A stretch of 64,000 bases of DNA from a virus (IMGVR_UViG_3300045988_146577); one strand, 5' to 3'; shown: positions 108 to 59,109, numbered from the stretch's first letter. The notes: generated from the letters alone by a model not told the origin. A program made the numbers and translations.

Positions 108-127
108 ATAAGTAATCATCTACTTAT
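108..127 (-). promoter_or_regulatory. class-2 palindrome (TAAGTA..TACTTA family)
   Basis: ATAAGTAATCATCTACTTAT upstream of partial CDS at window start. Confidence 0.4.
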
Positions 128-141
128 TTTAGCGGCACTTG

Positions 142-1395
142 TTACGATAGCGCCTTAATGCCCAAAACCTTGCTTTGCAACTCCAACTGTTTGGTATACG
201 GTTTTGCCCGATAATAGGCTTTGATAATTTGTTCTGGCGTTGCATCGCCTGGGTCGAGTCCTTCCTCGCCCAAACATGCTACTTTGACATTAAGACCAAT
301 ACTGGTCAGTCGCCTGGCTGCGGCCATAGTGTTGCGTATAGCTTGCTTTTCACTATCCCACATCATGATCACATTACGTAATCCACGCGCCTTGAGCGTC
401 AGGAACGCGCCCAACTGATCTTCTGCATCCTGAGTGGTGTTACCAGATAGATGCATCCCGAACGTTCCTATCGGTTCCACGTAATCACGTAATGTTTCTT
501 CATCAAAAATAGCTCGTTTAACTCCCATAACATCGAACGCCCCCTCACAGACAACTACAGTCTGTTTGCCGACCGCATTATGGCCGTTGTAGAGAAACTT
601 ACCTGAAGCTGGAAGCTGCATAGGAAAGAGGTAGCGACGTTCAGCTGTACCGGTAATGTCTCGTCCCTGAAATGTCTTCATTACCCCATCCAGATCGTAA
701 ACCGGTATCAGTATTCGCATATCGAATATCTGTCCTTTAACCTGATCTGTATACGGATCTACATAGGCGTGCTTGCCTTCGACGCAGTATCGTAGGTCAA
801 AATACTTTGCCATTTCAGGCGATATGTTTCGTTCAACCAGATAGTCTGGAAGACGGCCATCTATAGGAAGCTCGTAATGACGAGGGAGTGCAACTGGCCC
901 CTCTAACTCGACTGTGCTTGCAAGCACTATCTCTTCTTTCTTTGGTGCCCACCCCTGGGAAAGAAGGGCGTTCTGCACATATTCCTCGAACTGTCGTCGT
1001 GATTTGCCGCTGTAGTGCTTGAGGAAGACCAGCTTATTGAACTGAATCTCTTCGGGATGATCACCAGCGAAGCATTTACCGACGCCACTGGTCAGATTGA
1101 AATATACCTTCCAGTTGGAGCTGCCACATACCGGACACTCCTTGATATTCACTTCACGACCGCGAGTACTCACGCCTCCACGTCGATAAACGATACCTTC
1201 AGTATCCAACCATTGTTCAAAATCTAATTCGGTAATTAGCTCTTTCAGCTCGCTCACGATAATTCCACTTTTAACAGGCAATATTGTGACCAACCTAAAT
1301 GTTGATATAACATAAAGGCTCATGTGTTTTTCTTTTGTGGTTTGGCAAAAGAAAAGTTGTTTCACCAATGAATCAAGCGTGGAGGTGTTCTCCAC
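142..1395 (-). CDS. DnaG-like DNA primase (zinc-finger + TOPRIM)
   Basis: CPVCGSS...C zinc-binding motif followed by TOPRIM-like acidic motifs (VVVCEGAFDVMGV); immediately downstream of the helicase gene. Confidence 0.75.
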   Translation of the reverse strand: MENTSTLDSLVKQLFFCQTTKEKHMSLYVISTFRLVTILPVKSGIIVSELKELITELDFEQWLDTEGIVYRRGGVSTRGREVNIKECPVCGSSNWKVYFNLTSGVGKCFAGDHPEEIQFNKLVFLKHYSGKSRRQFEEYVQNALLSQGWAPKKEEIVLASTVELEGPVALPRHYELPIDGRLPDYLVERNISPEMAKYFDLRYCVEGKHAYVDPYTDQVKGQIFDMRILIPVYDLDGVMKTFQGRDITGTAERRYLFPMQLPASGKFLYNGHNAVGKQTVVVCEGAFDVMGVKRAIFDEETLRDYVEPIGTFGMHLSGNTTQDAEDQLGAFLTLKARGLRNVIMMWDSEKQAIRNTMAAARRLTSIGLNVKVACLGEEGLDPGDATPEQIIKAYYRAKPYTKQLELQSKVLGIKALS

Positions 1396-1404
1396 GCTTA
1401 TTTT

Positions 1405-2745
1405 TTAGGTAACGTCTAAGATTCGCTCAATGAAGCGCATTTGTTCGAGGTTTTGTTTAACGCGAATGCTGATCCCTCCCTGCTGGTTACGTGAACCAGC
1501 AAAGTAGAGACGAGCCTCTCCTTTCGCTTCTTCTTCTTCGGTTTTGTTGATCGTTATTACCAGGTCAGCAATACGTACTTTTTCGATGTTGTCGGCAGCG
1601 TGCATCATTGTGGCAACTTCTGACGCGCCACCTTCACGGTTTGTCTGCGATGCCGTGATACCAGCAACGTTGTGTTTGTCATAAAGAGCACGTAAGTCGG
1701 TATAGATACTACGTATGTTGGCGCGATCATCACGAAGGTCATAACTGGCACGCATCAAATCTGCATAGTCGACAACAACCATGTCAGGCACCATGCCATT
1801 GGCTTTCATGCTGTTAAGCATACGATCCAGATCTGCCGGTGACATACTTCCTGACGGACGCTCAACAACCCACAAACTACCAATCCCCTTCGTGGCTCCC
1901 AACTCTGCCAACTTACGATGAACCTCATCGCGCCGTTCCACCAGCTTGGACATTTCTGTCTCCGACAATCTTGCATCAAAACGGTCGGATAAAATGGTGG
2001 TGTGAACCTCCAGCGAGAGATACAGAACATTGTAGCCAGCAAGCGTTGCGTTTATGGAAAACTCACCCATTGCGGTCGATTTACCGGATTTAGCGAACCC
2101 CATGAAGAGCACCATTTCGCGCTTTGCCCAGCCTTTTTGGTACAGCAACCTATCGAGCAGAGGGAGTCCAGTTGTAATGCTGTTTGGCACATACTCCTCT
2201 GAAGCCTCATATTCACGCGCTTTCAATCGCTCACTTGCGGAGGTGTAGTAGTCATAGATTCCGGTCGCTTCGTTCGATCCAATCTGCTGAACCTTGGCCA
2301 TGATTGCCATCGCCCCCTGAAAGTCGCCTTTCTCTTTCAGTTCAGCAGCCTTAATCAGAGCATCATCAAACGCTACGCTTTTTGCGAAGGTTGATACCTG
2401 GTCAACCATGTACGAGGTATCGGACAATTTTTCTGCAAGGATGCGCTTAAACGCAGCAACAACATCGGCGAATAGTTCCTCACGGATAGTCTTATCGCGT
2501 TTCGCACGCTTAAGCATATCCAGAATTGCAGATGAAGAGGGCGCGCTCTTGTACATACGGTAATAGCCCGAAACCATATTAACCAATATGGCATTGGCCA
2601 CATTGGCAAATTGGCTAGGCACAACCAGATCTCCCGCACGAGTAAGAAACTCGTGATCACGACAAAAATATGCCGTCAGTCTGTTCTGGAAATCTTCATC
2701 AAACTCTTCGGACAGCCCGCGTCCTGTATGGCAAAGTTCGGTCAT
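1405..2745 (-). CDS. DnaB-family replicative helicase
   Basis: RecA-like core with Walker A GFAKSGKST and Walker B-like VVVDYADL; AAGGA RBS; class-1 palindrome in leader. Confidence 0.75.
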   Translation of the reverse strand: MTELCHTGRGLSEEFDEDFQNRLTAYFCRDHEFLTRAGDLVVPSQFANVANAILVNMVSGYYRMYKSAPSSSAILDMLKRAKRDKTIREELFADVVAAFKRILAEKLSDTSYMVDQVSTFAKSVAFDDALIKAAELKEKGDFQGAMAIMAKVQQIGSNEATGIYDYYTSASERLKAREYEASEEYVPNSITTGLPLLDRLLYQKGWAKREMVLFMGFAKSGKSTAMGEFSINATLAGYNVLYLSLEVHTTILSDRFDARLSETEMSKLVERRDEVHRKLAELGATKGIGSLWVVERPSGSMSPADLDRMLNSMKANGMVPDMVVVDYADLMRASYDLRDDRANIRSIYTDLRALYDKHNVAGITASQTNREGGASEVATMMHAADNIEKVRIADLVITINKTEEEEAKGEARLYFAGSRNQQGGISIRVKQNLEQMRFIERILDVT

Positions 2746-2764
2746 GTGCTTTCCTTTGTTTTTT

Positions 2765-2780
2765 AAACAAATTGTTTTCT
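2765..2780 (-). promoter_or_regulatory. class-1 palindrome (AGAAAACAA-N-TTGTTT) in helicase leader
   Basis: AAACAAATTGTTTTCT about 20 nt upstream of helicase ATG. Confidence 0.5.
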
Positions 2781-2788
2781 AGTATTAG

Positions 2789-3540: not shown

Positions 3541-3562
3541 GGTAGGTAGTTACTTACTTATC
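3541..3562 (-). promoter_or_regulatory. class-2 palindrome
   Basis: GGTAGGTAGTTACTTACTTATC about 15 nt upstream of RBS of 2789 gene. Confidence 0.45.
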
Positions 3563-3645: not shown

Positions 3646-3700
3646 CCTGCTTCCGTATATATTTAATAAGTTACTTATTATTTATATATACAGAAGCAGG
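3646..3700. repeat. 55-bp AT-rich imperfect palindrome (copy 1)
   Basis: CCTGCTTCCGTATATATTTAATAAGTTACTTATTATTTATATATACAGAAGCAGG; near-identical copy at 35258-35312. Confidence 0.6.
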
Positions 3701-3805
3701 CTCCTAATGGATACCAAGAACAACATAATTTGACTCCAACCCCAGATGCTATGTCATTGACAGATTTATCAAGGGAGATCATGTTAGAATCAGTGTTTTA
3801 GCCTC

Positions 3806-4939: not shown

Positions 4940-5299
4940 TCAACCTTTCTTCATCAACTCTCGTTTGATTTCATCGGTACGCATCGTGACATCGGCAGCG
5001 GTGATCGCCTCATTCAATTTCACGATGTCCTCGATTTCCTGCGGTGACTTCTCTGCCAGATGGAAAATGGCTGCTCGAATCACGTCAGAACGAGTGAACT
5101 TCTCGAAGCGAGGGATGAACTTCATCATCTCCAGCAGTTCGAAGTATTCGTCCTCCAGTGACATTGTGCGGCTTTTAATTTTCTCTTTGCCACGAGTCGG
5201 GCGTCCCTGTGGTCTGACTGGTTGGCGCAAAGGAGTTGTGTTCTTAGCCGGTGCATCAGGCTCTTTGCGCTTTGCTAGGTCACCCATTTTCATGGACAT
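4940..5299 (-). CDS. small basic protein cotranscribed with ParA; candidate centromere-binding partner (ParG/ParB-like role)
   Basis: Start overlaps parA stop (5299); Lys/Arg/Pro-rich N-terminus then predicted helices; position-based inference. Confidence 0.4.
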   Translation of the reverse strand: MSMKMGDLAKRKEPDAPAKNTTPLRQPVRPQGRPTRGKEKIKSRTMSLEDEYFELLEMMKFIPRFEKFTRSDVIRAAIFHLAEKSPQEIEDIVKLNEAITAADVTMRTDEIKRELMKKG

Positions 5300-5967
5300 T
5301 ATTCTTCTTCCTCCAGACTCAACAGATAATCTACAAATTCTTCAAACTCGGCTTCCGCCTTTTTGTCGCGCTCGCTACCGGTCATTTCAAAGATAGAACG
5401 ACCAGACTCTTCCGCATCATCATAGACGTTGCGGTTATATAGATTGACTGGCGCAGACTCGATTCCAAACGTCTCAACAATCTCTTTAGCCGCCAGAATG
5501 CGAGACACTTGTGATGGCAAAGCCGGGCACTGGTTCATGACCGCGCGGACCTTCACTTTATCGTTTACATTGCGAACATTGTCGATAATAGGATCGATGT
5601 CACGTAAAGATTTCAAATCACGACGCTTAGGACGCAGCGGGATAATGATAACGTCAGCCATCAGCATCGCTTGTCGCTGAATTTCGGAGTCGAAGCCACC
5701 AGCATCTACCACTACAAACTCAGCTCTACCCTGAAGCGATTTTAGGTGCTTAATGATGTCATCCTGAACGTATGCAAAAGGAATCAGCTCAAGGTCTTCG
5801 TTCTGTCGACGGTCTTCACACCAGCTCGTTGTCGTGCGCTGAATATCTATATCGGTAATATAAACCTTCTTCTTCTTTTTGACTTTCATGCAAACGGCAA
5901 TTTGCTGGGCAACGGTGGATTTGCCAGGCCCGCCCTTTGTGCCGCCAACCACAAAGATCTTGGTCAT
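5299..5967 (-). CDS. parA: ParA-family partition ATPase (small, type Ib-like)
   Basis: Deviant Walker A VVGGTKGGPGKST, 222 aa; class-1 palindrome about 36 nt upstream of start. Confidence 0.8.
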   Translation of the reverse strand: MTKIFVVGGTKGGPGKSTVAQQIAVCMKVKKKKKVYITDIDIQRTTTSWCEDRRQNEDLELIPFAYVQDDIIKHLKSLQGRAEFVVVDAGGFDSEIQRQAMLMADVIIIPLRPKRRDLKSLRDIDPIIDNVRNVNDKVKVRAVMNQCPALPSQVSRILAAKEIVETFGIESAPVNLYNRNVYDDAEESGRSIFEMTGSERDKKAEAEFEEFVDYLLSLEEEE

Positions 5968-8597: not shown

Positions 8598-8620
8598 GTA
8601 GGTGTGTACTTACCTATCTA
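8598..8620 (-). promoter_or_regulatory. class-2 palindrome upstream of lysis cassette
   Basis: GTAGGTGTGTACTTACCTATCTA, downstream of tail-fibre terminator hairpin. Confidence 0.45.
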
Positions 8621-12763: not shown

Positions 12764-12807
12764 GTTGAATATGCTCCTTGATTTGGCGGGCTATCCTTGC
12801 CCGCCAT

Positions 12808-12826
12808 TAAGTAAATACTTACCTAT
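12808..12826 (-). promoter_or_regulatory. class-2 palindrome upstream of tail fibre gene
   Basis: TAAGTAAATACTTACCTAT followed by hairpin and AAGGAG RBS. Confidence 0.45.
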
Positions 12827-12856: not shown

Positions 12857-15800
12857 TCACAGACGGCCAATTCTTACTCGTAGGACGTTGTTATCGTCAT
12901 AAACGTCAATCCGCTGACCATTTATAACCAATCGCCCATTGCCGCCGCTATTACCGTTGATCTCAAGCGTTCCATTTTTGCCGAACCGCCATCCAGATCT
13001 ACCGCTAACAAAATTGGTAGATTGCAGATCGCCTACTTTTGCATTGGTGATTGTGCCATCCTTGATATACGCTCCATTCATATAGGCGATACTGTTTTCG
13101 ATAACAAATGGCGTTGTGATCTTCCCGTTAACAGAGTTGACCAAACCAAACCTGTCCGCCTGAACCAAAAACTGAGATAGCCCAGTGGTGTCAATACCAA
13201 GAGCAATACCGGCAACATACTTCTGCCCTCCGCTCGTTGAAGTCTCCATTTTCAACGTCCACGCGGTTGAGACTTTTTTGTTGGTATCAGCAATGGCTGT
13301 TGCCTGCTGTTGAATTGTCGCGGTATTTCCATCCACCTCTGCTTTCAGAGTATCGATTCGCCCACTTAGAGCATTATCTGCCTGCGTTCTCGCTGTCGTT
13401 TCAGTTGTGACCGCCGCAGAAATGTTGGCTGCCGTTTGAGACTCTAAGTTTGTGATTTGAGTCGCCAGTGCCGCATCTTGCTCTGTACGCGTTTTCGTTT
13501 CGGTTGCTACAGCCGCTTTAATATCCTCTTTGTATTGAGAGGTCAGCTTGGTGATCTGAGACGACAACGCCGAGTCAGCATCAGTTCGAGCCTGCGTTTC
13601 AACTGCAACGGCCGCACTAATATCTTTCGCAGTCTGTGCTTTTAAACTTGAAACCTCTTTTGTTAAAGCGGTATCACCATCTGCACGAGCCGTTGTTTCT
13701 CTGGCAAGAGATGCCTCAAGATCATTAGCTTTTGCTGTAAGAGACGTAATCTGAGTGGACAATGCACTATCGGCATCAGTCCTTGCCTTTGTCTCTACAG
13801 CAACCGCTGCGGCAATATCAGTTCCGGTCTGTGCTCGCAGGCTGTTAATTTCTCGTGAGAGCGCCTGGTCAGCACTTGCCCTGGCCTCCTGCTCCTGAGT
13901 GATGGCAGCGGATATATCACCGTCAACCTTTGACTGAAGCTGGTTTATTTGTTTGGCTAACGCAGAGTCCCCGCTTGCTCGAGCCTCCTGCTCACTACGT
14001 ATTGCAGCAGAAATATCATCATCAACCTTTGCCTGAAGTTGTGTGATCTGGCTTGCCAGAGCCGAATCTTCCGTTGCTCGGGCTTCTTGCTCTTCCTTAA
14101 TAGCTGCGACGATATCGTTGCTTACTTTCGACTCAAGCTGAGTGATCTGTGTCGTCAGAGCTTCATCGGCAGATGTACGAGCCTCCTGCTCTGTACTAAT
14201 CGCCGCGCTGATATCTCCTTCAAACTTAGATTGCAGCTGAGTGACACGCTTTGCCAACGCTTCATCGCCATCGGCACGAGCGGTGGACTCTTCCAGAATA
14301 CTGGCCTTAATGTCTTCGCCAATTTCTACGCGAATTTCCTCAACCTTCGTGGCCATTGCAGACATATCATCAGCAAAGGTTTTCTGTGTTGTTGCGATCT
14401 TCGCGTTATTGACCATCTGCTTGTGCTGGTCTTCATCTTGACGAAGAGCCAGGTCAATATTTGTTTTGGCCAACGCCTCAATGTTCGTAGTCAGTTCTGC
14501 ACTGGCACGATCGACCTCTGCAACCGTCTTTTTCATTTCTTCAACGGCAGCGGAGCTTTCCTCTACCGTTGACTGCAACACTTCCAGTTGTTTAGCGTTT
14601 GCAGCATCGCCTTCAACACGAGCCTCGCTTTCCTTAGCAATAAGAGCCGCCGCTTCATCTCTTGCAGCCTTTATTGCCTCGACTGTATTAGCGAGAGCTT
14701 TATCGTGTTCAGATACGGTGTTTTCGATTTCAACAATTGCAGCATCAGTAGCATCAATTTTTTCAAACGCTTCATTGACCTTGTCGATCGTTGCCGAAAC
14801 CTCACCTTTAAGCTCGGTTTGTGCGTTCTCCAAAGCATCGCTACGCTCGTTGAATTTTATTTCAAAATCCGCGAGGTTATCGCTGAACTGCTTATCTAAT
14901 TCAGCTATATCTTCCTTAACGTCGTTTACCGACCCCTCCAAAGATTCGACGCTCTGGTTGATATGCTCATTTAACTCGTCAACTGCTTCTTGAGAGGCTT
15001 TGCTGTTGATGTCCTCAAGCAGAGCCTGACCAAGCTCGGAAGATGTAATTTTGCCAGTCAGGAACGACAGTACATCGCGAGTTGTCGCCTCTGTACCCAA
15101 GTTTGAGTTCGGAGGACTTAACATACCTCGCTTGTTCGATGCTCGAACCCAGTAATACCACGTTTCGCTATCCCCAAGACCAGCATGTGTAAAGGTGGTG
15201 CTTGCAGACTCTGCGATCAGTTTCGCCGTATCCAGATTGTTGGTCTGGGATGCGTAAACATTAATGTGATCAAGGTCTACCGAATCTGGATTAACCCAAT
15301 TCAGTATCACATTACGATAGTCTCCAACGGCCGTTAATGACGTTGGTGCATCCGGCGGTGTCATTGTGCCCAGCACCTGATAAACGGCACTGATAATTTC
15401 TGTTTTTTTACCGTTGAATGAAACCGCATACAGTTGGAAGTCGTAGCGTCCATTCTCCGCGACATTAACGATTTCGTATTGCTCTTCGGTTACACGCGCC
15501 GATTGCCAGTTCGATACATTGTTTTCATCAGAACGTCGCCAACTGATCCAATACTCTGGAGATTTCCCTTCCCATGTTGCAGTCAGTTTTACTGACAGGT
15601 TGCCAGGGCTTGAGAGATAAGTCCCTTCGGTGATTTGCAAATTAGACGGCTTGGAGTAAGTCGGGTCCAATACCGTCGTATTTTGCGGGATAAGCGTTGC
15701 ACCATTGTCGATCGCCTCATATTTAGACGGATTGTTCTCAACAGCGGTGATGTCAAAGCTACCCGGCGTTTCCCCCTGCGCGATGTTAACGATGCGAACG

Positions 15801-19723: not shown

Positions 19724-19746
19724 ATAGTAAATTAGTACTTACTTAT
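19724..19746 (-). promoter_or_regulatory. class-2 palindrome upstream of gpL-like gene
   Basis: ATAGTAAATTAGTACTTACTTAT. Confidence 0.45.
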
Positions 19747-24987: not shown

Positions 24988-25067
24988 GGCGTAGTGAGCA
25001 ACTACACGACTGAAATAGAATCCGAGATCTATTGAGACGGTCCTTGTCCCGGATTCATCGCGGGAAA

Positions 25068-25385
25068 TTACTTTGCCCCTTCGCCAGCCGCTTTTTCGTT
25101 TTCTTCATCAATCACTTCCATAGCGAAGGTGAAGATCTGCTGGAGTTGCGGAACAGTCAGTTTTTCAAGAACTTCGTCAGGTACTGAAGGGATAACCTTA
25201 CGAACCAGATCTGCATAAGCTGTCACTTGCTCAACAGGAGACATGTTCATGAGATCTTTGCCTTCCATCTGCTTGATGGAAACGAACAGACCTACCGTCA
25301 TTTCAACGATGGGATATTCCTGACCGCCAAATTTGATGCTTTTCTTCGGAGGCAGAATGGAATCGAGATCGAGTAATTTGGTCAT
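25068..25385 (-). CDS. lambda gpG-like tail assembly chaperone
   Basis: 105 aa acidic protein directly upstream of tape measure; overlapping -1 frame ORF downstream. Confidence 0.6.
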   Translation of the reverse strand: MTKLLDLDSILPPKKSIKFGGQEYPIVEMTVGLFVSIKQMEGKDLMNMSPVEQVTAYADLVRKVIPSVPDEVLEKLTVPQLQQIFTFAMEVIDEENEKAAGEGAK

Positions 25386-25440
25386 TGGTTAAAATCCTTT
25401 TAAAAGAGAGGCCCATCCTGAGCCTCTGCTTAATTACTGA

Positions 25441-26187: not shown

Positions 26188-26235
26188 TGATGGAAAACTC
26201 CTTTTTCCGTTAATTCTACGCATTCATTGCGCTAA

Positions 26236-26255
26236 TAGTAAGTATATACTTACTA
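26236..26255 (-). promoter_or_regulatory. class-2 palindrome (perfect) upstream of major tail gene
   Basis: TAGTAAGTA-TA-TACTTACTA perfect dyad. Confidence 0.5.
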
Positions 26256-26261
26256 ATTGAG

Positions 26262-26618: not shown

Positions 26619-26646
26619 CAAACTTGCAAACGCTTCAATAAACACA

Positions 26647-31629: not shown

Positions 31630-31650
31630 AAAAATTCCCTTTGTTACTTA

Positions 31651-33225: not shown

Positions 33226-33236
33226 TTGAATAACCT

Positions 33237-33255
33237 TAGATAATTACTTACCTAT
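33237..33255 (-). promoter_or_regulatory. class-2 palindrome between terL and portal
   Basis: TAGATAATTACTTACCTAT overlapping terL stop, 12 nt from portal start. Confidence 0.45.
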
Positions 33256-34508: not shown

Positions 34509-35140
34509 TATTCGTCCTCCCCTTCACTTCCATCATCTGTCGCATCAAATTCGCTTAGAGCTTCTTCTTCCAACGTCTCAAGCAATTCGTCATCGATGAT
34601 TTCAGGCTCGTCGTCTTCCTGACGTAATTTCGCCACCTGGGAAGGCGTAAGCTCACCAAATACCAGGTTCGGAATTTCTTCCTCGTCATTTTCCGCATGA
34701 TCCATGCCCAATGCTTTGGACGAAACTTCAAAGCATTTTGCAAGGGTATTACTGGCTCTCTGTAAGCTCTTGAGAGAATCCTCAATCGCCCCTAAAGGCT
34801 TACCCTCACGTTTGGCCGTAGTGACTTCGACCATCACCATCTGCCCCAACGCATACGCCCAGCCGTCATAACGTGTACGACGTTCTTCTATCTTTTCCGC
34901 ACGGGCTTTAGCGCGAAGCTCTGCGTCAGATTTAAGAGACTCACGAACCATCTTCCCAACAGAGTCCGCGCCTTTCTCTAATCCTCGCTTTTTGAAATGT
35001 CTGGAGAGTGTTTCACGACGAATGCCGTACTCTTCCTCCAGCTTTGAGAGTGTATATTCGCCTGACGTCCATTTGGCTTCAGCTTCGGCCCACTCCGCTG
35101 GTGTCAGGCGAGTTTTTACCTCGTCTTTTTCGACCGTCAT
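34508..35140 (-). CDS. terminase small subunit
   Basis: N-terminal HTH (TLSKLEEEYGIRRETLSRHF), acidic C-terminus, stop overlaps terL start. Confidence 0.6.
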   Translation of the reverse strand: MTVEKDEVKTRLTPAEWAEAEAKWTSGEYTLSKLEEEYGIRRETLSRHFKKRGLEKGADSVGKMVRESLKSDAELRAKARAEKIEERRTRYDGWAYALGQMVMVEVTTAKREGKPLGAIEDSLKSLQRASNTLAKCFEVSSKALGMDHAENDEEEIPNLVFGELTPSQVAKLRQEDDEPEIIDDELLETLEEEALSEFDATDDGSEGEDE

Positions 35141-35221: not shown

Positions 35222-35257
35222 GGGGTGTTTAATTAGGTCTGGGCATGTCTTACTAAG

Positions 35258-35312
35258 CCTGCTTCCGTATATATTTAATAAGTTACTTATTATTTATATA
35301 TACAGATGCAGG
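35258..35312. repeat. 55-bp AT-rich imperfect palindrome (copy 2)
   Basis: Same sequence as 3646-3700 with one substitution; about 120 bp upstream of terminase small subunit. Confidence 0.6.
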
Positions 35313-35336: not shown

Positions 35337-35603
35337 TTACATCACCAGTAACTTCGCTTTGGCTCGACCTAAAGTGGTTAACCCAAGAGTTCGGCGGTGA
35401 TAGCGATTGTCACTGCGTTGGCGCGTATGCCCTTTCTCCACCAGCCCCTTTTTTATCAGAGCGCGAATTGAGAACTGGATACTTTGCTTGGTTGTCTTGT
35501 ACGGCAAAACTTCAAGCAATTCGTCCAGATCAAGTAGATGACCTCGCTCATAACCGAGATTGAGCGTTTTGATGATGTCCTTTTGTTTATCGGTTAACGT
35601 CAT
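35337..35603 (-). CDS. small winged-helix DNA-binding protein (candidate transcription regulator)
   Basis: 88 aa, basic, helix-turn-helix-like segment; first gene upstream of terminase operon. Confidence 0.45.
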   Translation of the reverse strand: MTLTDKQKDIIKTLNLGYERGHLLDLDELLEVLPYKTTKQSIQFSIRALIKKGLVEKGHTRQRSDNRYHRRTLGLTTLGRAKAKLLVM

Positions 35604-36503: not shown

Positions 36504-37165
36504 AAATGAACCTCATCATGACTACCATTGTGATATTCCACCTTCACGCGTTCTTTGTAGTGCTTGGTGATCTGCATATCCGGGCGCAGCGCGTTCTTCA
36601 GGTCTTCGTGAGTCGTCGCCACCATTACCGTTGCACCAACCTTTCGAGCGGCACGCTGGAGGTTAGATGCCACAACCTGAGCGGTTACACGGTCTAGAAC
36701 AGCACCGAACTCGTCAGCAGCCCACACTTTAGCGCCTGACTCAATCAGTTTGGCAATCTTGAGACGATATTTCTGACCGTCTGACATTTCAGAAGGCTTG
36801 CGAACAAACAGATATGCATCGTTCAGACCAGCCATAGATAACAACCCAAGCGCATCGCTGGTCGTTTTGCCCAACTGATCGATGACGTTAACCTCATTAT
36901 CGAAGGTAAAATCATCGATGGAGGCTACAGACAGCCCTTCATCCTTCATCTGTCGTTGCAACTCGCGCAGCACAACGGATTTGCCGGAACCGGATTGGCC
37001 GGTGATGTACACCACATCGCCCTGCTTCACTTCCAGCTCCAGATTGTCGTAAAGCGTCCACTCTTTTTCGTCCAGGCCAAGCCCGAACGACTCAGCGATT
37101 TCCAACGTGCGAGTGGTTTTATTTACGCGTGTCTGAAACGATACGTTGATGATGTATTTGCTCAT
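36500..37165 (-). CDS. ABC-type ATPase (stand-alone nucleotide-binding domain)
   Basis: Walker A GQSGSGKS, signature-like MSDGQKYRL, Walker B VWAADEFGA, H-loop TTHEDL. Confidence 0.65.
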   Translation of the reverse strand: MSKYIINVSFQTRVNKTTRTLEIAESFGLGLDEKEWTLYDNLELEVKQGDVVYITGQSGSGKSVVLRELQRQMKDEGLSVASIDDFTFDNEVNVIDQLGKTTSDALGLLSMAGLNDAYLFVRKPSEMSDGQKYRLKIAKLIESGAKVWAADEFGAVLDRVTAQVVASNLQRAARKVGATVMVATTHEDLKNALRPDMQITKHYKERVKVEYHNGSHDEVHL

Positions 37166-37863
37166 GCAGCCATCTCCCCGGAAGAGATCTTCTCCGCATA
37201 TGCCACAAATGCGTCTACCCCGCTTTCTCCCGTCATTTCTTCCATGTGGGCAAGCAAATCACCAACAACAATGGCAGAGCCAGCAGGGAGCGTTTTAAAG
37301 CCCAATACGTCGACAACACGTACTTCTTCCGCTGCAACTTCACGACTGATCTCGGTGTGTTCATCCTTCTGTCGTTTAGTTTCTTCGCCAAGATCGATAA
37401 CTAGCGAGTCGGTGTCCATTTCTTCTGTCATGCTGCCAACGAGAACATTCAACTCACGCTCTTCAAAGCCGAAAACCTCGATATCGTCCAGAACAAGCGA
37501 CTCAAGCTCTTTCTGTAGCTTAATTGCATCGTAATCAATGCTGGCAAGTCGGTTATCTTCAAGGCGCTTCGCACGAACCTCGTCATCACTGAGATCATCG
37601 CGAACAATAACCGGTACGCGCTCAAGTCCAGCAAAAATTGCAGCCTCACGGCGGCCGTGGCCAGTAATAATTACGTCGTTCTTATCGACCGTAATTGGCT
37701 GGTCAAATCCGCGCTTTTTAATGGCTGCGGCCAGATCTCGGATCTGCTGTTCATCATGCTTTTTGGCATTCATCTCATAGGGAATAAGATCTGCCGGGTC
37801 GCGATATACGATTTCAAACTTTTTGGTCATTACATACGCTCCTTGTAGTAGTCGACCAGCCAC
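37162..37863 (-). CDS. ParB-like nuclease-domain protein
   Basis: ParB/Srx N-domain motif VIITGHGRREAAIFAGLERVPV; acidic C-terminus. Confidence 0.65.
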   Translation of the reverse strand: MAGRLLQGAYVMTKKFEIVYRDPADLIPYEMNAKKHDEQQIRDLAAAIKKRGFDQPITVDKNDVIITGHGRREAAIFAGLERVPVIVRDDLSDDEVRAKRLEDNRLASIDYDAIKLQKELESLVLDDIEVFGFEERELNVLVGSMTEEMDTDSLVIDLGEETKRQKDEHTEISREVAAEEVRVVDVLGFKTLPAGSAIVVGDLLAHMEEMTGESGVDAFVAYAEKISSGEMAA

Positions 37864-38528
37864 ACCAGAGCCTCACCAGCGTTCTCCATTTCATTACCGG
37901 TGTTAATAGCCTGCTCTTTGATGATGTTTTTTATGGTTTCTGCAACACGATCTGACGCATCGAAAGTTACTTTGAAGCGCATGGTCTGATGTTCCGCACC
38001 CACACGTTCGGTTTTCTCTCGTTTGTCGGTATCGACAGGCTCATCACTACCACGAGACAACGCCTCCAGTGCTTCAAGGTCGATTGCCGCCTCTTTTGCT
38101 AAAACCATCGAGATTTCGTCGTCATACGGGGCGATTTCAGACAGTTGATAGTCAAGTTCTGACTGAATTTCTTCAATGAAGCGTTGCAATGCGATTTGGT
38201 CGTCTTCACCGTATCGCTCGTTGTCCACCAGTGACATCTGTTTAGCTACGACATCGCTAATTTTGCCCACAGAAAGCACCGGAACCGTTGAAATTCCTTG
38301 CTCAATAGCAGCACGCCAGCGATGTTCGCCGCCGAGGATTTCAAAAAATCCATCTTCAAGTTCACGAGCCAAAATTGGCTTAAAAAAGCCCAATTTTTCG
38401 ATAGAACCTTTCAGTTTTTCAAAATTCTGCGCACCAACCGAATTGGTGTTCCAGGTATTCGGGCGAAGGTTGGCAACATCAACCTGCAAAATCGTGATTT
38501 TTACATCCATTTTATTGCTACAATCCAC
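37830..38528 (-). CDS. ParB-like nuclease-domain protein (second paralog)
   Basis: ParB/Srx N-domain motif FEILGGEHRWRAAIEQGISTVPV; GTG start per ORF track. Confidence 0.65.
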   Translation of the reverse strand: MDCSNKMDVKITILQVDVANLRPNTWNTNSVGAQNFEKLKGSIEKLGFFKPILARELEDGFFEILGGEHRWRAAIEQGISTVPVLSVGKISDVVAKQMSLVDNERYGEDDQIALQRFIEEIQSELDYQLSEIAPYDDEISMVLAKEAAIDLEALEALSRGSDEPVDTDKREKTERVGAEHQTMRFKVTFDASDRVAETIKNIIKEQAINTGNEMENAGEALVWLVDYYKERM

Positions 38529-38548
38529 TAAGTAATCACTTACTTATT
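38528..38548. promoter_or_regulatory. class-2 palindrome in divergent region between ParB-like gene and helicase
   Basis: CTAAGTAATCACTTACTTATT adjacent to TATAAT hexamer (38548-38553). Confidence 0.45.
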
Positions 38549-38592: not shown

Positions 38593-40152
38593 ATGACTGT
38601 TCGGATTGTATCTAACGCAGTTAATGCGCTTATTTCTGGCGCAGATGACAAGGTAAAGCAAATGGTGCAACAGATGTTGAGCTACGAAGTCGAGACTGGC
38701 GACTGGAAGGGCACAAGCACGATGTTCAACTGGAGTAAAAACTCGTTCCCTGCTGGCTTTGCCAAGCCTGTAGCGGCGAACTTGAACAAGGCGGGCATAA
38801 AATGTGTTCATATCCGCAAAGACAAAGCCCCGGCGCTTGGTAAACCAAATCCGGCGGTTAACCCATTCCCATGCAATCCTGATTATGCGTATCAGGATCA
38901 GACTGTGGAAACACTAGTTCGAGAGGGAATGATGATTGCGCAGATCGCTACTGGTGGCGGGAAATCTAATGTTGCCTGCAAAGCAGCTGCACGTATCGGT
39001 CGAATGACATTATTTTTAACAACCCGCTCTGTTCTGATGTTTCAGATGGCCGAAAACTTCCAGAGATCCATCGACTACCGCGCCGAAAATGGCGAACCGT
39101 GGTTAAAAGACCAAAAGGTTGGAGTCATTGGCTCGGGTGAGTTCCAGGTATCACGACATATCAACGTCGCTACAGTTCAAACTCTTGCAAGTTTCCTCGA
39201 AGAACCACCACGCGATGCAACACCAGATAAGAAAAGCTTCCACCTCAAACGTCGGGAGTTGGTGAAACGCTTCCTTTCAAGTGTCTCTCTTCTTATTCTG
39301 GAAGAGGCGCATGAGTCTTCAGGCTCAAATTTCTATGACATTGCCAGATTATGTGTGAACGCAGACTATCGTCTGGCACTTACGGCCACGCCGTTCATGA
39401 AGGATTCTACAGAAGCCAACATGCGTCTGATGGCTGTGGCTGGGCGAATTGAAATCAAAGTCACAGAAAAGTACCTGATTGATCGAGGCATTCTGGCAAA
39501 ACCGTACTTCCTTTATCATAAAGTTGCCTACAAGCCAGACGAGGTCAGAATAAAGGCGGAACTTGCCAACAAACACCTCAATTTTAGAGTTGGTATGAGC
39601 ACCGCCTACCAAAAGGCTTATCAGTTGGGGATCGTGTATAATTTGGGACGTAACGAGGCCATTGTGCGCGAAGCATTGCTCTATAAGCAACATTCTCTCA
39701 ATTGTATGACTCTGGTTCGTCTTAAACGCCACGGGCAAATCCTGATGGAAATGATGAAAGAGTCCGGCCTTAGAGTTGACTTCATTTATGGGGAATCGAA
39801 CCAGTCGACAAGGCAAGCAAAGCTGAACAGTTTAGCGTCTGGTGAAATAGATGTTTTAATAGGCTCGACTATTCTGGATGTTGGTGTTGATGTGCCAAGC
39901 GTTGGTGCGGTCATTCTTGCTGGTGGTGGGAAAGCAGAAGTTGAAATGAGACAGCGTGTCGGTCGTGGCTTACGAGCCAAGAAGAATCAGGCAAACGTGT
40001 GTTTTATCACTGATTTCATTGACATTAGCAACAAATACCTGTTGTCTCACTCTTATGAGCGAAAACACATCATCGACACCACACCTGGCTTTGCAGAAGG
40101 TGTATTGCCTATTGATGGCGCATTCGATTTTGGAGTTCTGAAACGAGATTAG
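38593..40152 (+). CDS. SF2 (DEAH-like) helicase
   Basis: Motif I ATGGGKS, motif II LILEEAHE, motif III TATP, motif VI QRVGRGLR; AAGGAAAGAGG RBS. Confidence 0.8.
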   Translation: MTVRIVSNAVNALISGADDKVKQMVQQMLSYEVETGDWKGTSTMFNWSKNSFPAGFAKPVAANLNKAGIKCVHIRKDKAPALGKPNPAVNPFPCNPDYAYQDQTVETLVREGMMIAQIATGGGKSNVACKAAARIGRMTLFLTTRSVLMFQMAENFQRSIDYRAENGEPWLKDQKVGVIGSGEFQVSRHINVATVQTLASFLEEPPRDATPDKKSFHLKRRELVKRFLSSVSLLILEEAHESSGSNFYDIARLCVNADYRLALTATPFMKDSTEANMRLMAVAGRIEIKVTEKYLIDRGILAKPYFLYHKVAYKPDEVRIKAELANKHLNFRVGMSTAYQKAYQLGIVYNLGRNEAIVREALLYKQHSLNCMTLVRLKRHGQILMEMMKESGLRVDFIYGESNQSTRQAKLNSLASGEIDVLIGSTILDVGVDVPSVGAVILAGGGKAEVEMRQRVGRGLRAKKNQANVCFITDFIDISNKYLLSHSYERKHIIDTTPGFAEGVLPIDGAFDFGVLKRD

Positions 40153-40154
40153 TT

Positions 40155-40433
40155 ATGAGCGAAAAGAAAACAACTTATTGCCAAGTGGCATTGTCTGATA
40201 AGGCCAATGAAAAACTTGGAAAATTCCAAATAAAACTCAAAGAGAAAAAAATCAAGATGTCTAAGGCTGAAGTTATCAATGCCATTCTGGAGACGATGAC
40301 TATGGCTGAATTTGACAAAGTCACATCTGCCGTTGGGGTTTCCGCTAAGACGCGTGAGAAAATCATGCGCATCTATGAAAACTCCAATATGACAAAAAAA
40401 GATCTAGAGGAAATACTGAGCAGGTTGCCGTAA
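40155..40433 (+). CDS. hypothetical protein (92 aa)
   Basis: ATG 2 nt after helicase stop. Confidence 0.4.
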   Translation: MSEKKTTYCQVALSDKANEKLGKFQIKLKEKKIKMSKAEVINAILETMTMAEFDKVTSAVGVSAKTREKIMRIYENSNMTKKDLEEILSRLP

Positions 40434-40498
40434 CATTTCATATTTACCCCCTATCTACTAATTCTATGATGTGCTCACTTGTTAGAAAGGAGCACATC

Positions 40499-41065
40499 AT
40501 GAGTTGGTTAAAAGAATTATCATTTGTTGACACCACTGGCGCTAAGAAAAATCATTCTTTCTGGAAAGTCAGCGATCCTTCTGATTTTCTTGTTGGTGCT
40601 AATGCTGCTTTTGAATTGCTTAACTTTTATCAACGTTATCCAGAAATGAAACACAGTCCACTCCTGTACAGAATAACAAACGATATGAATAGGTCTGGTT
40701 TATTATCAAGTGAGTCAGCGAAAGGCTTTTTTAGCAAAATTACGCCACACATATCATTCGATGCTGCAAACGAAATTGATTATCTATCCACGAAACCTCA
40801 AGAACAATTATCTGTACCACCTGAGAAAAAAGAAAGACGAATTGCCAGCATTGAAAATATATCGAAAGAGCTTCGCACAACAACGTTGAGGCTGCTGAAC
40901 TTTCTTACGCTGCTTAATTGGATAGATGATCAAACATTGATTCCATCAACAGATGCGTTGGATAACAGAGTCCTTAGGCTGAACAAAAAATCGCAATTTG
41001 GTTTTGTGTTCACCAAAAAAGGTGAAGATTTAATCAAAAGAAAATATAGATTATTGAATGATTAA
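40499..41065 (+). CDS. hypothetical protein
   Basis: AAGGAG RBS before ATG at 40499 (track 40466); RBS lies in an inverted repeat GATGTGCTC/GAGCACATC; terminator hairpin at about 41084-41110. Confidence 0.4.
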   Translation: MSWLKELSFVDTTGAKKNHSFWKVSDPSDFLVGANAAFELLNFYQRYPEMKHSPLLYRITNDMNRSGLLSSESAKGFFSKITPHISFDAANEIDYLSTKPQEQLSVPPEKKERRIASIENISKELRTTTLRLLNFLTLLNWIDDQTLIPSTDALDNRVLRLNKKSQFGFVFTKKGEDLIKRKYRLLND

Positions 41066-41449
41066 TAGTCTACATGCAGGTGTATGAGAGCACCTGCATG
41101 TGACATTCATCACATTTTTGAATGTATATACCTTCGGCTGAAAAAGATCTTGATAGGCTGAATGATATTTGTAGGCTTCGCCTCCGAAGAAATTCGGAGG
41201 ATATATGCGACAATTTATAAAAACGTGTGACCTAAGAAATATAGTAGATGATATTGCATGTGATGAAATTAGCAAAAAAGAGAAGAACAAAAACGCCAAT
41301 TAACGCTATCTACCTATAAATCTGAAGAGTTCAATAGGATGCATATCTGAAACACGCCCTCGACAATACCAAAAAGATTTGTCGAGGGCGTCGGGCTTTC
41401 CCTATGTCTGAACGATTAAATTTTACAGCAATTAAATATTTTGTATATG

Positions 41450-42250
41450 TTATTCTTCTGGTGGCACGACAAAATCATCGAGCTTATTCTTTTCGTCTCG
41501 AAGCAACTTGATTTCTTCTTCTGTTATACATTTGTCATAATCTGTTTGTTCAGAATGGCACAGTGTAACCGCGAATGGATAGCCGGTATAAGACAGTCCC
41601 CTAACAGGTTCTAGTTCACCGTTGTCTTTTTTCCTAAATTTGTAAAAGTCAGGAGTGTCATAATTGGTGACGCTAACAAGAGCATATTTATCATTTTCTC
41701 TTGCATACACTTCACTAACACCTCTCGATTCGCCCAACTCTCTACTCACATATGTCGAATCACTTGCAGCATCAAACACAGCCTGACCTAATGGAGTTTT
41801 TTTTAAATCATCTATTTTCTCTTTTTCCTTCCTGATTTTAGATTCGTTTTCCAGATAAAGTTTCACACCGTTTTCTTTGCATGCTAGATTTTGGCGTTCA
41901 AAACGTAATCGTTCTCTTGCCGAGTTGGTACTTTTATCCATTGTAACGAATACAATCGGGTTACGTTCACGAACATCAAAGATGTGCGCATTGAATGCGG
42001 TCGCACCTGTATAGGCATTCAAGACGTTTTTGCCATTCACTTCTCCACATACCATATATGAATAGCTATTTTCACCTAACTGAATAGCTCGCATATTCGT
42101 GAACCGACCAGCATCAGGATCTAGCAGTGTAGAGCGAATATCCTTTTCAACTAGATCTATGGCTCGCTCTTCATCAGAATCACAACCTGTTAATAGTAAA
42201 GCCGCTATTAACAATGCTAATGAGTATTTTTTATTCACCCCATTCTTCAT
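41450..42250 (-). CDS. lipoprotein (AT-rich moron)
   Basis: Signal peptide plus lipobox LLLTGC; low GC; own terminator hairpin downstream. Confidence 0.6.
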   Translation of the reverse strand: MKNGVNKKYSLALLIAALLLTGCDSDEERAIDLVEKDIRSTLLDPDAGRFTNMRAIQLGENSYSYMVCGEVNGKNVLNAYTGATAFNAHIFDVRERNPIVFVTMDKSTNSARERLRFERQNLACKENGVKLYLENESKIRKEKEKIDDLKKTPLGQAVFDAASDSTYVSRELGESRGVSEVYARENDKYALVSVTNYDTPDFYKFRKKDNGELEPVRGLSYTGYPFAVTLCHSEQTDYDKCITEEEIKLLRDEKNKLDDFVVPPEE

Positions 42251-42352
42251 GAAACTTATTCCATAATCAATTTTTGGTGGAATGTACGGTTAGTCTGTCT
42301 ACGCATCATAGAGATGTATATAATGACCAAAAAAGACTTAAAAAGGTAGACT

Positions 42353-42874
42353 ATGGTTAAAGACATCACCTACGGCATACCGGCTGAAGTATGGCCGCGA
42401 GACTACGAACATGCTGAACGCACCTTGCTCTTCTGGCGGAGAGCTAAATTTCCTGTAAGAGTCACTCTCGAAGACGGCCAAGTGTTTTGCATGTACGTTT
42501 ATGGTCTCATGTCATCTCGTAACAAAGTTGACCTTTGTCCAACTCCATTTGACAAAGAAAATCGTATAAGGCTCCCACTTGAGCGCATTAGCACAATTGA
42601 ATCAGGCGTAATTGATGGCATTGATTACGATTTCAAAGGGAGACTAACAATACACCCTGACTATGTAGACAACCAGCCATCACGTCGTGACTTTTTTAAG
42701 ATATGTCGTCAGGCTTACCAAAACGGCAAATCTATAAGGGTCTACATGGCAGACGGTCGCGAAATTGAGGGAACGTCAGATGGCGTTGACGCCTGTCTAG
42801 TCACACTTAAGTTGGAAGACGGTAGAAAAATACTTATTTTCTTCGATTGGGTTGAACGAATCCTTCCGTTTTAG
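42353..42874 (+). CDS. hypothetical protein (173 aa)
   Basis: ORF with ATG start; no motif recognised. Confidence 0.4.
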   Translation: MVKDITYGIPAEVWPRDYEHAERTLLFWRRAKFPVRVTLEDGQVFCMYVYGLMSSRNKVDLCPTPFDKENRIRLPLERISTIESGVIDGIDYDFKGRLTIHPDYVDNQPSRRDFFKICRQAYQNGKSIRVYMADGREIEGTSDGVDACLVTLKLEDGRKILIFFDWVERILPF

Positions 42875-42883
42875 GATATTGAT

Positions 42884-43183
42884 ATGAAAACTGTAGCAGC
42901 ATTCACATTCTTAACTTTCATTTTTAGCTCTTCCGCATTTCCTCAAGAAAATAGCATTGAACGAGTGCAACGTGTCTCTACAGAGTTGTGTTCAAAGGCG
43001 GAAGACTACGATTTGTGCATGTTAGACCTAAGCATGGCTTTAGGCGCTGCATATCAAGATGGACTGATCGTTGCGGGATGCAAGTTGGGACTTGATGAGC
43101 CTTCGAAAGACAAATGCGAAAACTCGGAGCGTTTTCAGGAATATATAATAAAAGAAATCAGGAACTATGCAAAAAAGATGTAA
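42884..43183 (+). CDS. small secreted Cys-containing protein
   Basis: N-terminal signal peptide MKTVAAFTFLTFIFSSSAF; 4 Cys in mature part. Confidence 0.45.
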   Translation: MKTVAAFTFLTFIFSSSAFPQENSIERVQRVSTELCSKAEDYDLCMLDLSMALGAAYQDGLIVAGCKLGLDEPSKDKCENSERFQEYIIKEIRNYAKKM

Positions 43184-47245: not shown

Positions 47246-47263
47246 CGTAAGTATGTACTTACA
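47246..47263 (-). promoter_or_regulatory. class-2 palindrome
   Basis: CGTAAGTATGTACTTACA just downstream of terminator hairpin 47272-47298. Confidence 0.45.
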
Positions 47264-47271
47264 ATACAAAA

Positions 47272-57822: not shown

Positions 57823-57893
57823 GTGTTTTTCTCTTCTTTGCTGTTACATAAGCACTACCAAGTGCTGGTTATTTTTCACAAATAAGAAAAGGT

Positions 57894-57909
57894 AGAAAAC
57901 AATTTATTT
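57894..57909 (+). promoter_or_regulatory. degenerate class-1 palindrome fused to hairpin (duplicate of 54756 module)
   Basis: AGAAAACAATTTATTT + AAGGCCACAACTTATGGCCTT. Confidence 0.35.
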
Positions 57910-57960
57910 AAGGCCACAACTTATGGCCTTTATTTATTCATGCCGAAGGATTTGTAGCGT

Positions 57961-58341
57961 CTAATTGCCGGATAAAATGGGGTGAGGTGCTTGCCAGTAG
58001 GCTCCACCGGTCCATGTGAACCCCATGCGAATAAGAGTGTTTATTGCGGCTTTGGTAGACTCCGATTCGACACTGGCTTTTCGAAACTCTTGAACCTCTT
58101 TCGCCAACTTGTATGTAATTGTGCAGGGGACGATTGCAGCCCAGCCTTTCTCATGACTGTTAATGACCATCTGGATGTGACCATCCAGAATAGGTTGATT
58201 AGGCATGTTATTGAAAATGTCTGCCTGTTTTTGAATGTGAAGAAAAAGCCTTGCCAGCTCCATTTGCTCACTACGAGACAAGGGATTATCAAGAGGGCTT
58301 TTTGCAAAAGCGGCTACACGCTGTGCGTCAATGCCAAACAT
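57961..58341 (-). CDS. hypothetical protein (126 aa)
   Basis: ORF coupled to upstream gene (shared boundary 58341). Confidence 0.45.
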   Translation of the reverse strand: MFGIDAQRVAAFAKSPLDNPLSRSEQMELARLFLHIQKQADIFNNMPNQPILDGHIQMVINSHEKGWAAIVPCTITYKLAKEVQEFRKASVESESTKAAINTLIRMGFTWTGGAYWQAPHPILSGN

Positions 58342-59045
58342 CAGCGCACCTCACCATCTTTATGGCTGGAGTTAACTTCCGTCATTAAATGTCTGACGTA
58401 ATCGACAAGAGAGCCGCCTGGTGGAATCTGGCATTCCTCAACTAACTGGAAGTAGATATCCGCTGCATTACGTGTATTGCTACCCGCGCATATTCTTTCT
58501 TCCCGAAGTGCATGAAGCTCGTTGATCAAACGGTCACACTCTCCGTTACGCTGATCCACAACGGCCTCAAGCTCTGCGACGCGTTCACCTGGCGTCTTAC
58601 CTTCTTTGTGTTGGATGGTAACGACGAAATCGCCAATTGCAGGGACGTTGTAATCCAGCTCAAGGTAGTTTTTGGCACCGCTGCGGACGAACTCACCCGC
58701 GAACATGGTGGCGAACATCGCAGAGGCCACTTCGCCGTTGAAAAGTGACTCCAGATCTAACGGAGTCCCGGCATCAAGAGCCTCTTTTGCTGTATCCATT
58801 GCATCCATGAACCGATCAAACTCATTGGCGCGCTTTTCCAGGTTTTTCCATTGCTCGCTCCAACGTTTGGCAACGAAGTCTATGAATGTTTTCGCGGATT
58901 CATCAAAATCCCCCTCAAACTTAACGATGCCTTTATCAATAATGATCTGGCCTACCGCATCCTCTGCATAACCTTTCAATGTAAACTTGAAAGGAAAATC
59001 AGAATGGCCTGTGACGTTAAAATGCTCTAACTGGAGGTTGTTCAT
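58341..59045 (-). CDS. hypothetical protein (234 aa)
   Basis: ORF preceded by class-2 palindrome. Confidence 0.45.
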   Translation of the reverse strand: MNNLQLEHFNVTGHSDFPFKFTLKGYAEDAVGQIIIDKGIVKFEGDFDESAKTFIDFVAKRWSEQWKNLEKRANEFDRFMDAMDTAKEALDAGTPLDLESLFNGEVASAMFATMFAGEFVRSGAKNYLELDYNVPAIGDFVVTIQHKEGKTPGERVAELEAVVDQRNGECDRLINELHALREERICAGSNTRNAADIYFQLVEECQIPPGGSLVDYVRHLMTEVNSSHKDGEVR

Positions 59046-59086
59046 GTGTTTTTCTCTTATCGTTTAGTAACTACATTCTTACACAA

Positions 59087-59109
59087 ATTAGGTAAGTATT
59101 TACCTATCA
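59087..59109 (-). promoter_or_regulatory. class-2 palindrome
   Basis: TTAGGTAAGTATTTACCTATCAT between MTase stop and next gene start. Confidence 0.45.

Follow-up and report, generated by a model that had tools for sequence, protein, structure and literature searches.

We examined a family of short palindromes dispersed between the genes of a 64,000-nt stretch of viral DNA (IMGVR_UViG_3300045988_146577), and we refer to this whole stretch as the window. At ~98.5% identity, the window matches Cyrano, an E. coli phage-plasmid of the SSU5 family. Over positions 25000-35000, identity is 98.9% to Escherichia phage Cyrano (OV696614, SSU5-like phage-plasmid pLF82), 81% to Salmonella phage SSU5, and 78% to Klebsiella relatives. 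The whole window aligns with Cyrano 34856-1 plus 108379-79738, reversed, with a few segments replaced. Because the minus strand carries nearly all of the window genes, the motif is read on that strand. SSU5-like phage-plasmids are common in Enterobacteriaceae, and resistance genes are often carried by phage-plasmids; among the relatives encountered here are Klebsiella elements and a contig from Yersinia pestis, the plasmid family taking in Y. pestis pMT1-like elements.

The family consensus is a 22-bp palindrome with the halves GATAGGTAAGT and ACTTACCTATC, each a half-site of the form ATARGTAAGT, with the half-site centres ~11-12 bp apart; written for a synthetic duplex with flanks, the palindrome reads GATAGGTAAGTACTTACCTATC. 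The motif TARGTAAGTANTTACYTA, of which this palindrome is the ideal form, has 11 good copies in the window. The 11-mer ATAGGTAAGTA with at most one mismatch matches 8 times in the window (0.68 expected), and TARGTA-N6-TACYTA, at the same tolerance, matches 9 times (0.16 expected), a number reached by 0 of 100 shuffles, so that the motif-enrichment check put forward in a preliminary description of this DNA bears the family out. A position weight matrix (PWM), trained on the palindrome copies and used to score the window, returned 11 strong sites with scores of 21-30; above 14 elsewhere in the window, it returned just two 55-bp palindromes and a weak element at 47246. The preliminary description had counted at least 11 copies. 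Ten of the 11 that it listed are clear members, while the one at 47246-47267 (minus strand; GTAAGTAcaTACTTAC) is a doubtful relative that has inner arms only, a different spacing, and no outer ATAG/CTAT (PWM 11.3, versus 21-30 for real copies) and that lies just after a minus-strand terminator; a further copy, at 31730-31747, had been overlooked. We reassembled the whole genomes of Cyrano and SSU5 from public records and scanned them for the palindrome, which revealed 21 and 24 copies, respectively, in matching places. Further, the exact ideal 18-mer was found 31 times in IMG/VR, in all 31 cases on SSU5-like contigs (13-113 kb, mostly 45-113 kb).

All of the window copies are on the minus strand, and they sit at gene junctions that can be followed along the genome. 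The first, TAAGTAGATGATTACTTA (109-126), lies after a primase-like gene and 42 nt ahead of the start of the CYRAN_34 homologue (window 66), and the second, TAAGTAAGTAACTACCTA (3543-3560), with a perfect upstream half and a degenerate downstream half, lies 13 nt ahead of the start of the CYRAN_31 homologue. Through the tail genes, copies mark the junction of a tail-fibre gene and the holin gene (TAGGTAAGTACACACCTA, 8599-8616), that of the host-specificity (J-like) gene and a tail-fibre gene (TAGGTAAGTATTTACTTA, 12808-12825), and that of the minor tail M-like and L-like genes (TAAGTAAGTACTAATTTA, 19728-19745). The copy at 12808 is followed directly by a GC hairpin without a T-run (GGCGGGCaaggataGCCCGCC, 12785-12805, minus strand) and then by the ribosome-binding site, and a hairpin, GGCGCT...AGCGCC, lies 10 nt downstream of the copy at 19728. 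Upstream of the major tail gene, the 18-mer core at 26239-26256, which keeps the register of the family, is overlapped by a perfect 20-bp dyad, TAGTAAGTATATACTTACTA (26236-26255, minus strand), as had been described. The copy TAGATAAGTAGTTATCTA (29814-29831), with one compensated A-T pair, lies 9 nt past the stop codon of the major-capsid gene, and directly downstream of it is an intrinsic-terminator-like hairpin, GGGTGGGCtatacGCCCACCC plus TTTTTG (29790-29806, minus strand). Two copies are associated with the portal gene: TAAGTCAGTACTTACTTA (31730-31747) lies in its last 100 nt, and TAGGTAAGTAATTATCTA (33237-33254) overlaps the large terminase stop codon, 11 nt ahead of the portal start. Finally, TAAGTAAGTGATTACTTA (38529-38546) lies in an 82-bp divergent region between a UvsW-like helicase gene (plus strand) and the first of two ParB-like genes (minus strand), with TATAAT overlapping its upstream end, and TAGGTAAATACTTACCTA (59089-59106) abuts the stop codon of a DUF4942 gene, 43 nt ahead of the next start. 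Ten of the 11 window copies are non-coding, placed past one stop codon and ahead of the following start, in keeping with the placement first described. GC hairpins, noted then in two cases, follow the copies at 12808 and 29814, and an additional one follows 19728.

The same placement extends over the whole of Cyrano, where 20 of the 21 copies are non-coding, though non-coding DNA makes up 13% of the genome. Eleven of the 21 begin -5 to +17 nt from the upstream stop codon, and the distance from a copy to the next start is 0 to 128 nt. Whichever strand is read, two of the three frames of the consensus contain stop codons, which helps to exclude the palindrome from genes but cannot yield 20 copies in 14 kb of spacer. 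Most copies (14 of 21) head replication, recombination, nucleotide-metabolism, or unknown early-type genes. Specifically, beyond the window, they head helicase-region, gp32-like, membrane-protein, SbcD, RNR-alpha, ThyX, and Dam genes and several unknown genes, and, within it, the copies at 109, 3543, 38529, and 59089 head non-virion genes. Since copies lie ahead of DNA-metabolism genes, the palindrome is not a mark of virion or lysis genes. The association with mainly structural and lysis genes that had been proposed reflects which part of the genome the window samples, and the proposal of a late, virion-specific promoter element is likewise unsupported.

Comparison with relatives, obtained through a portal-protein search of species-representative genomes that returned eight loci, revealed that the palindrome is retained but altered in a concerted manner. 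Elements from Kluyvera, the Yersinia pestis contig, and one metagenome-assembled genome (MAG) have the identical motif at identical junctions. Variants of the palindrome occur in a second MAG (80% portal identity; GATAGGTGGTTAACTACCTATC), in Morganella (69%; ATAGGTAT-N4-ATACCTAT), in Paraburkholderia (55%; GATAGTCAAAACTGACTATC), and in Massilia (55%, 62% G+C), where TAAGTCACCGGTGACTTA occurs 9 times within 21 kb (0.02 expected). The junctions kept are helicase/ParB-like, large terminase/portal, after the capsid gene (followed by the terminator), and before the major tail gene; a copy is present at the helicase/ParB junction (38529) in every relative examined, and the copy at the terminase/portal junction (33237) is also present in Massilia. 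Hence, homologous phages carry the element at equivalent positions, including relatives with 55-80% portal identity, which was among the comparisons that the preliminary description had called for. Across the relatives, the outer TARGT is constant, while the inner bases are lineage-specific and have changed together in all copies of a genome. The motif has co-evolved across the family, and this concerted change implies a co-evolving trans-acting protein. The order of capsid gene, palindrome, intrinsic terminator, and next gene (window 29790-29831; 13566-13620 and 13560-13610 in the relatives' contigs L016 and L017, respectively) spans E. coli to the Burkholderiales relatives (Massilia, Paraburkholderia), which puts a presumed control site directly upstream of a terminator.

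Whether the palindrome acts as DNA or as RNA can be judged from how its copies decay. Among 45 copies, non-complementary arm positions comprise 34 of the G-U type in the sense strand, 36 of the A-C type, for which only the antisense strand would allow pairing, and 48 transversions; there is no covariation at the variable R/Y positions, and the half that matches better, be it the upstream or the downstream arm, differs by copy. Predicted RNA hairpins range from -0.2 to -7.1 kcal/mol, with one copy unfolded, and an Rfam scan of the window found no match. Because the mismatches lack a G-U bias, the R/Y positions lack covariation, and the folds are weak, the palindrome reads as a DNA site, its halves decaying independently as the half-sites of a symmetric DNA-binding protein would, and not as an RNA hairpin. 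The alternative, anticipated in the preliminary description as an RNA processing or stabilising hairpin, is that the transcribed palindrome folds into a structure that is cut or that stabilises the message, or that the FljA-like protein encoded at 42353-42874 binds it. The copies do sit in leaders and are transcribed in the gene sense, some fold at -6 to -7 kcal/mol, and the window encodes a protein of the FljA family (Pfam E 3.5e-80), which acts on mRNA. Yet most folds lie between -0.2 and -4.4 kcal/mol, and in some copies the upstream half is poor while the downstream one is perfect, which single-strand recognition cannot explain. An RNA-level role is thus already largely refuted, and we regard it as highly improbable. 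As for the FljA-like gene itself, it encodes a full-length member of this family ('repressor of phase-1 flagellin') on the plus strand, in a low-GC island (38-40% G+C), and is kept in SSU5, a MAG, and Morganella; by eye, its product resembles two Sm/Hfq-like repeats and looks RNA-binding.

The copies are associated with host-type promoters oriented like the genes that they precede. The mean best gene-direction sigma-70 score overlapping a copy is 7.75 bits, compared with 4.71 for other intergenic positions and 3.55 anywhere, and 5 of the 21 copies have scores of at least 10 bits (2.2% expected), compared with 0 of 21 on the mirror strand, which served as a control for the TA-rich nature of the palindrome itself. 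An independent consensus scan of window positions 20-40 kb gave fewer promoter-like sites (11) than shuffles did (21). Its top match was TTGAAA-17-TATGAT (31726-31754, minus strand), where the palindrome at 31730 fills the spacer and its last TA begins the -10, and the other of its two best was TTGAAT-18-TATACT (26241-26270, minus strand), which encloses the copy at 26239. The register is not constant. The -10 starts at motif position 19, 22, 13, 8, -2, -5, or 30-36, with 19 the commonest, and a single fixed sigma-70 architecture across the copies was looked for and not found. At the copies at 109 and 59089, the palindrome lies over a -35-like element and is followed by an extended -10-like 9-mer, TGTAAGAAT, and the copy at 38529 follows TATAAT. 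In Massilia, the palindrome lies twice over a perfect TTGACA, once in a spacer, and once just after TGgTATATT. Such variation favours a repressor, since repressors tolerate it and activators usually do not. The copies at 109-126 and 59089-59106, otherwise unrelated, have this 9-mer in identical form 6 nt (94-102) and 7 nt (59074-59082) downstream, respectively, on the minus strand.

Published per-gene RNA-seq values for Cyrano, in the S1 Table of the paper that named it (PMC9928086), allow these promoters to be set against expression. The genes behind TTGAAA-17-TATGAT/TATCAT and TTGAAT-18-TATACT (CYRAN_4/5, 12/13, and 56/57) and those behind TTTACA-17-TAGTAT (CYRAN_60-62) have log2 values of 2.3-4.9 (mostly 2.3-3.8) in lysogeny broth (LB) and of 5.9-9.0 after 6 h in macrophages (PMC9928086), a rise of 2.5 to 6.3 log2, with no rise in their upstream neighbours. 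Specifically, CYRAN_12/13, behind the equivalent of copy 26239, are silent in LB and reach log2 7.6-8.5 at 6 h in macrophages, and the scaffold-like and capsid genes downstream of the equivalent of copy 31730 are likewise LB-silent and induced at 6 h. The strong promoters that bear a copy are thus inactive in the lysogen, and such silence of a near-consensus promoter points to repression through its only conserved element. Expression also falls across eight junctions in Cyrano, from an expressed gene to a silent one, including a drop of 3-7 log2 at the equivalent of 3543 and a drop of 3 log2 in the capsid-gene signal across the Cyrano copy at 5442 and its terminator; because terminators or hairpins sit at several of these junctions, a roadblock role is not separable from theirs. 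Together with the gene-direction promoter enrichment, the rises in Cyrano expression past several copies uphold the earlier suggestion of a promoter-linked regulatory element distinct from a second palindrome family in the window.

The reading that we favour, with something near an even chance of being right, is that the palindromes are the operators of one global phage regulator, probably a repressor, acting on host-type promoters. Each copy would serve as a double-stranded operator for one phage protein, which would bind either as a single symmetric dimer or as two dimers. These operators would sit across the lytic part of the genome, on or beside host sigma-70 promoters aimed in the gene direction; some would occupy the spacer or the -10, others would cover the -35, and others would closely follow the -10. 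While the element persists as a plasmid prophage, this protein would shut many internal promoters and may block read-through from expressed neighbours; once it is removed, host RNA polymerase would start at ~20 places together. We infer the repressor nature of the protein, as well as its identity, and several observations weigh against this scheme. About half of the copies have no convincing sigma-70 promoter, and several either come within 0-16 nt of the following start codon or immediately precede a terminator. Within the enterobacterial clade, motif columns are no more conserved than their flanks (majority fraction 0.84-0.97 versus 0.81-0.93). CYRAN_34, behind the equivalent of copy 109-126, is expressed in all conditions, including the lysogen. 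The RNA-seq data are bulk, low-coverage values from a 98.5%-identical relative and carry no 5'-end information, and an activator or a host stress sigma factor would account equally well for the rise seen in macrophages. Moreover, for the binder there are candidates only (a 92-aa protein encoded at 40155-40433 and the ParB-like proteins), and the ribbon-helix-helix fold suggested for the 92-aa candidate is without support from Pfam, profile comparison, or a structure model.

The chief competing explanation is that the palindrome is the box of a phage activator made after induction, which would replace the -35 (either P1 Lpa-like or an anti-silencer of the ParB/VirB type), the last TA beginning the -10. 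We extracted the Lpa-dependent late promoters of P1 from the annotation of its record, and they consist of AAGT(G/T)ACTT, 4 nt, and TAnnnT, with no -35; the core here is AAGTACTT, the last TA begins a TAnnnT hexamer in 13 of the 21 copies, position 19 is the commonest -10 register, and the -35 region is without consensus. The ParB-like genes, off in the lysogen, also rise together with the copy-headed genes. The likeness to P1 thus extends to a palindromic box upstream of a -10, many copies, and AAGT/ACTT core letters, and the comparison with late promoters of related phages suggested in the preliminary description, made here with P1, shows an architecture alike in spirit. In its particulars, it differs: the P1 box has 9 bp, a central base, a fixed 4-nt gap, and a centre near -22, whereas the core AAGTA(C)TT here lies inside an 18-22-bp palindrome that overlaps the -10 and varies in register, with copies downstream of the -10 and over a perfect -35. 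A tblastn search of P1 Lpa against Cyrano and SSU5 yielded no Lpa homologue, with nothing below E 0.29. (CYRAN_116, with 23 bits, was entertained as an Lpa homologue and dropped, the gene being absent from SSU5, which has the motif.) The mirrored flank yields TAnnnT almost as often, and the hexamer may therefore be part of an extended palindrome. Above all, the strongest sites have a near-consensus -35 and -10 at 17-bp spacing and should need no activator, yet they are silent in the lysogen, which is the main reason that we prefer a repressor and consider an activator less likely, though a serious contender.

Alternatively, the copies could be structural DNA sites or sites of the lytic phase, such as loading sites of a ParB-like protein for partition, condensation, or packaging, or hot spots of module exchange. 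Two ParB N-domain proteins are encoded beside the terminase genes in every relative, always with a copy ahead of them; sites of the ParB family are palindromes of 13-18 bp, and the Massilia version of the palindrome contains TCAC..GTGA, a feature shared with parS. However, neither partition nor packaging requires the observed link of the copies with gene junctions and with promoters in the gene direction, no breakpoint of the window against Cyrano coincides with a copy, and the real partition pair appears to be a small ParA and its downstream partner. We think such a role quite unlikely. Two bolder versions of regulation by these sites, together unlikely but not negligible, would make them either loading sites of the ParB pair, acting as a VirB/KorB-like lytic master switch for ~20 units, or symmetric stoperator-like roadblocks through which a small ribbon-helix-helix protein silences the 108-kb genome. 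If the ParB switch were true, a ParB-family protein would govern the lytic genes globally in a widespread family of phage-plasmids.

Under the favoured operator model, the 92-aa product of 40155-40433 (plus strand), the homologue of CYRAN_117, may be proposed as a candidate binder, and no more. Its gene lies beside the UvsW-like gene, on the strand opposite the lytic genes, is expressed ~12x above background in the lysogen (PMC9928086), and is kept beside the helicase in SSU5, Kluyvera, Y. pestis, a MAG, Morganella, and Massilia. The N-terminus has a ribbon-helix-helix-like pattern (TYCQVALSDKANEKL...). Pfam returned MatP_C RHH for the Massilia homologue at E 0.022, and hhalign against a self-compiled Arc/Mnt/CopG set gave the Arc register at a probability of 2%. 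An AlphaFold2 (AF2) monomer model was poor, with a predicted local distance difference test (pLDDT) score of 62; Foldseek found nothing below E 3.9 for it, and a sequence search of the Protein Data Bank (PDB) returned designed repeat proteins only. The alternative candidates are the two ParB N-domain proteins (37162-38528, minus strand; Pfam ParB_N 3.3e-13 and 1.5e-08), whose genes open the operon beginning at the copy at 38529. Their genes are conserved in all relatives, always with the copy ahead, and are at the detection floor in the lysogen, rising from log2 2.3 to 5.2 in the condition where the copy-headed genes rise. Because they are silent in the plasmid state, they cannot be the standing repressor, and we rejected them in that role. 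The 88-aa product of 35337-35603 may be added to the candidates. CYRAN_45, an Xre-type 'putative repressor', was set aside as a family-wide binder, since its integrase island is absent from SSU5. That island (CYRAN_40-46; Cyrano 39144-43038, outside the window), with its integrase and Xre repressor, looks like a separate insertion, and CYRAN_43 within it, of unknown function, has very high expression. In Morganella psychrotolerans, the homologue of the 92-aa candidate (contig L015, 2116-2440) is split by a frameshift in the record.

Several known systems share parts of this arrangement. The C1 operators of P1, as annotated in its record, are one short site in many copies over a ~100-kb plasmid prophage, in varied positions at lytic-type sigma-70 promoters. 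Here, too, many copies overlap or adjoin lytic-gene promoters, and the promoters with a site are shut in the lysogen in the Cyrano RNA-seq, CYRAN_34 being the exception. Unlike the palindrome described here, the C1 operators are asymmetric 17-mers and are not placed ahead of virion genes, whose expression relies on Lpa promoters; our site, by contrast, is a 20-22-bp palindrome ahead of virion and DNA-metabolism genes alike. The stoperators of mycobacteriophage L5 and cluster A, which Brown et al. are said to have described in 1997 as asymmetric 13-mers in one orientation, offer a second parallel: at least 20 copies in short spacers genome-wide, several with no evident promoter, and drops in expression at eight junctions. 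The site studied here differs from them in being symmetric, with either half able to match better, and the drops are confounded by terminators. A third is the Arc operator at Pant of P22, ~21 bp long, partly symmetric, and located between the -35 and the -10, where two ribbon-helix-helix dimers bind ATAG..-type half-sites. The strongest sites here have this layout, with the palindrome in the promoter spacer, yet Arc has a single operator in place of a genome-wide set, and the ribbon-helix-helix nature of our candidate is putative. Lastly, the operators of KorB, a ParB-family protein of RK2, are palindromic and dispersed over the plasmid at variable distances from promoters. The likeness includes the encoding of ParB-family genes, but those here are silent in the plasmid state.

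A literature search on the motif letters and on SSU5/pHCM2 regulation found nothing relevant in the searchable literature. As far as that literature shows, the control network outlined above is undescribed, yet it would be conventional (compare P1 C1, L5, and KorB), and the silencing of ~100 kb of lytic genes in a multicopy plasmid is likewise undescribed. The palindrome supplies a testable regulon map of ~20 operator-bearing promoters and two candidate regulators, and the co-evolved operator variants of distant lineages form a natural series. For annotation, our results carry a warning, in that the 'late operon' of SSU5-like phages is split into many separately controlled units.

Some further features of these genomes deserve mention. 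In Cyrano, the product of 29975-30334 (~window 4940-5300, minus strand), downstream of the small ParA, is annotated as a RelE/ParE toxin, but it reads like a ParG-type ribbon-helix-helix centromere-binding protein. The duplicated 55-bp palindrome of the preliminary description, with its centre ATAAGTTACTTAT, is present at window 3650-3706 and 35256-35312 as CCTGCTTCCGTATATATTTAATAAGTTACTTATTATTTATATATACAGAnGCAGG, with an apparent third copy near Cyrano 78.09 kb. Its central AAGTTACTT equals the P1 late-promoter -22 box exactly, and, among the palindromes here, only the 55-bp one carries it; its edge (3708) is exactly where the window ceases to be homologous to Cyrano, beside a replaced 1.2-kb segment. 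A second palindrome family, GAAAACAAnTTGTTTTC, is probably the 'class 1' of the preliminary description and has 18 window copies with at most three mismatches. No spacer was seen to hold both this palindrome and the one that is our main subject. Its 17-mers lie at window positions 2763, 6001, 35179, 35204, 45513, 45998, 46748, 47651, 50768, 50819, 54757, 62435, and 63164. In Cyrano, those of its copies that are intergenic are mostly separated from the following start codon by 9-40 nt (by ~70 at most), and a GATAAT-like -10 is found ~10 nt upstream of many.

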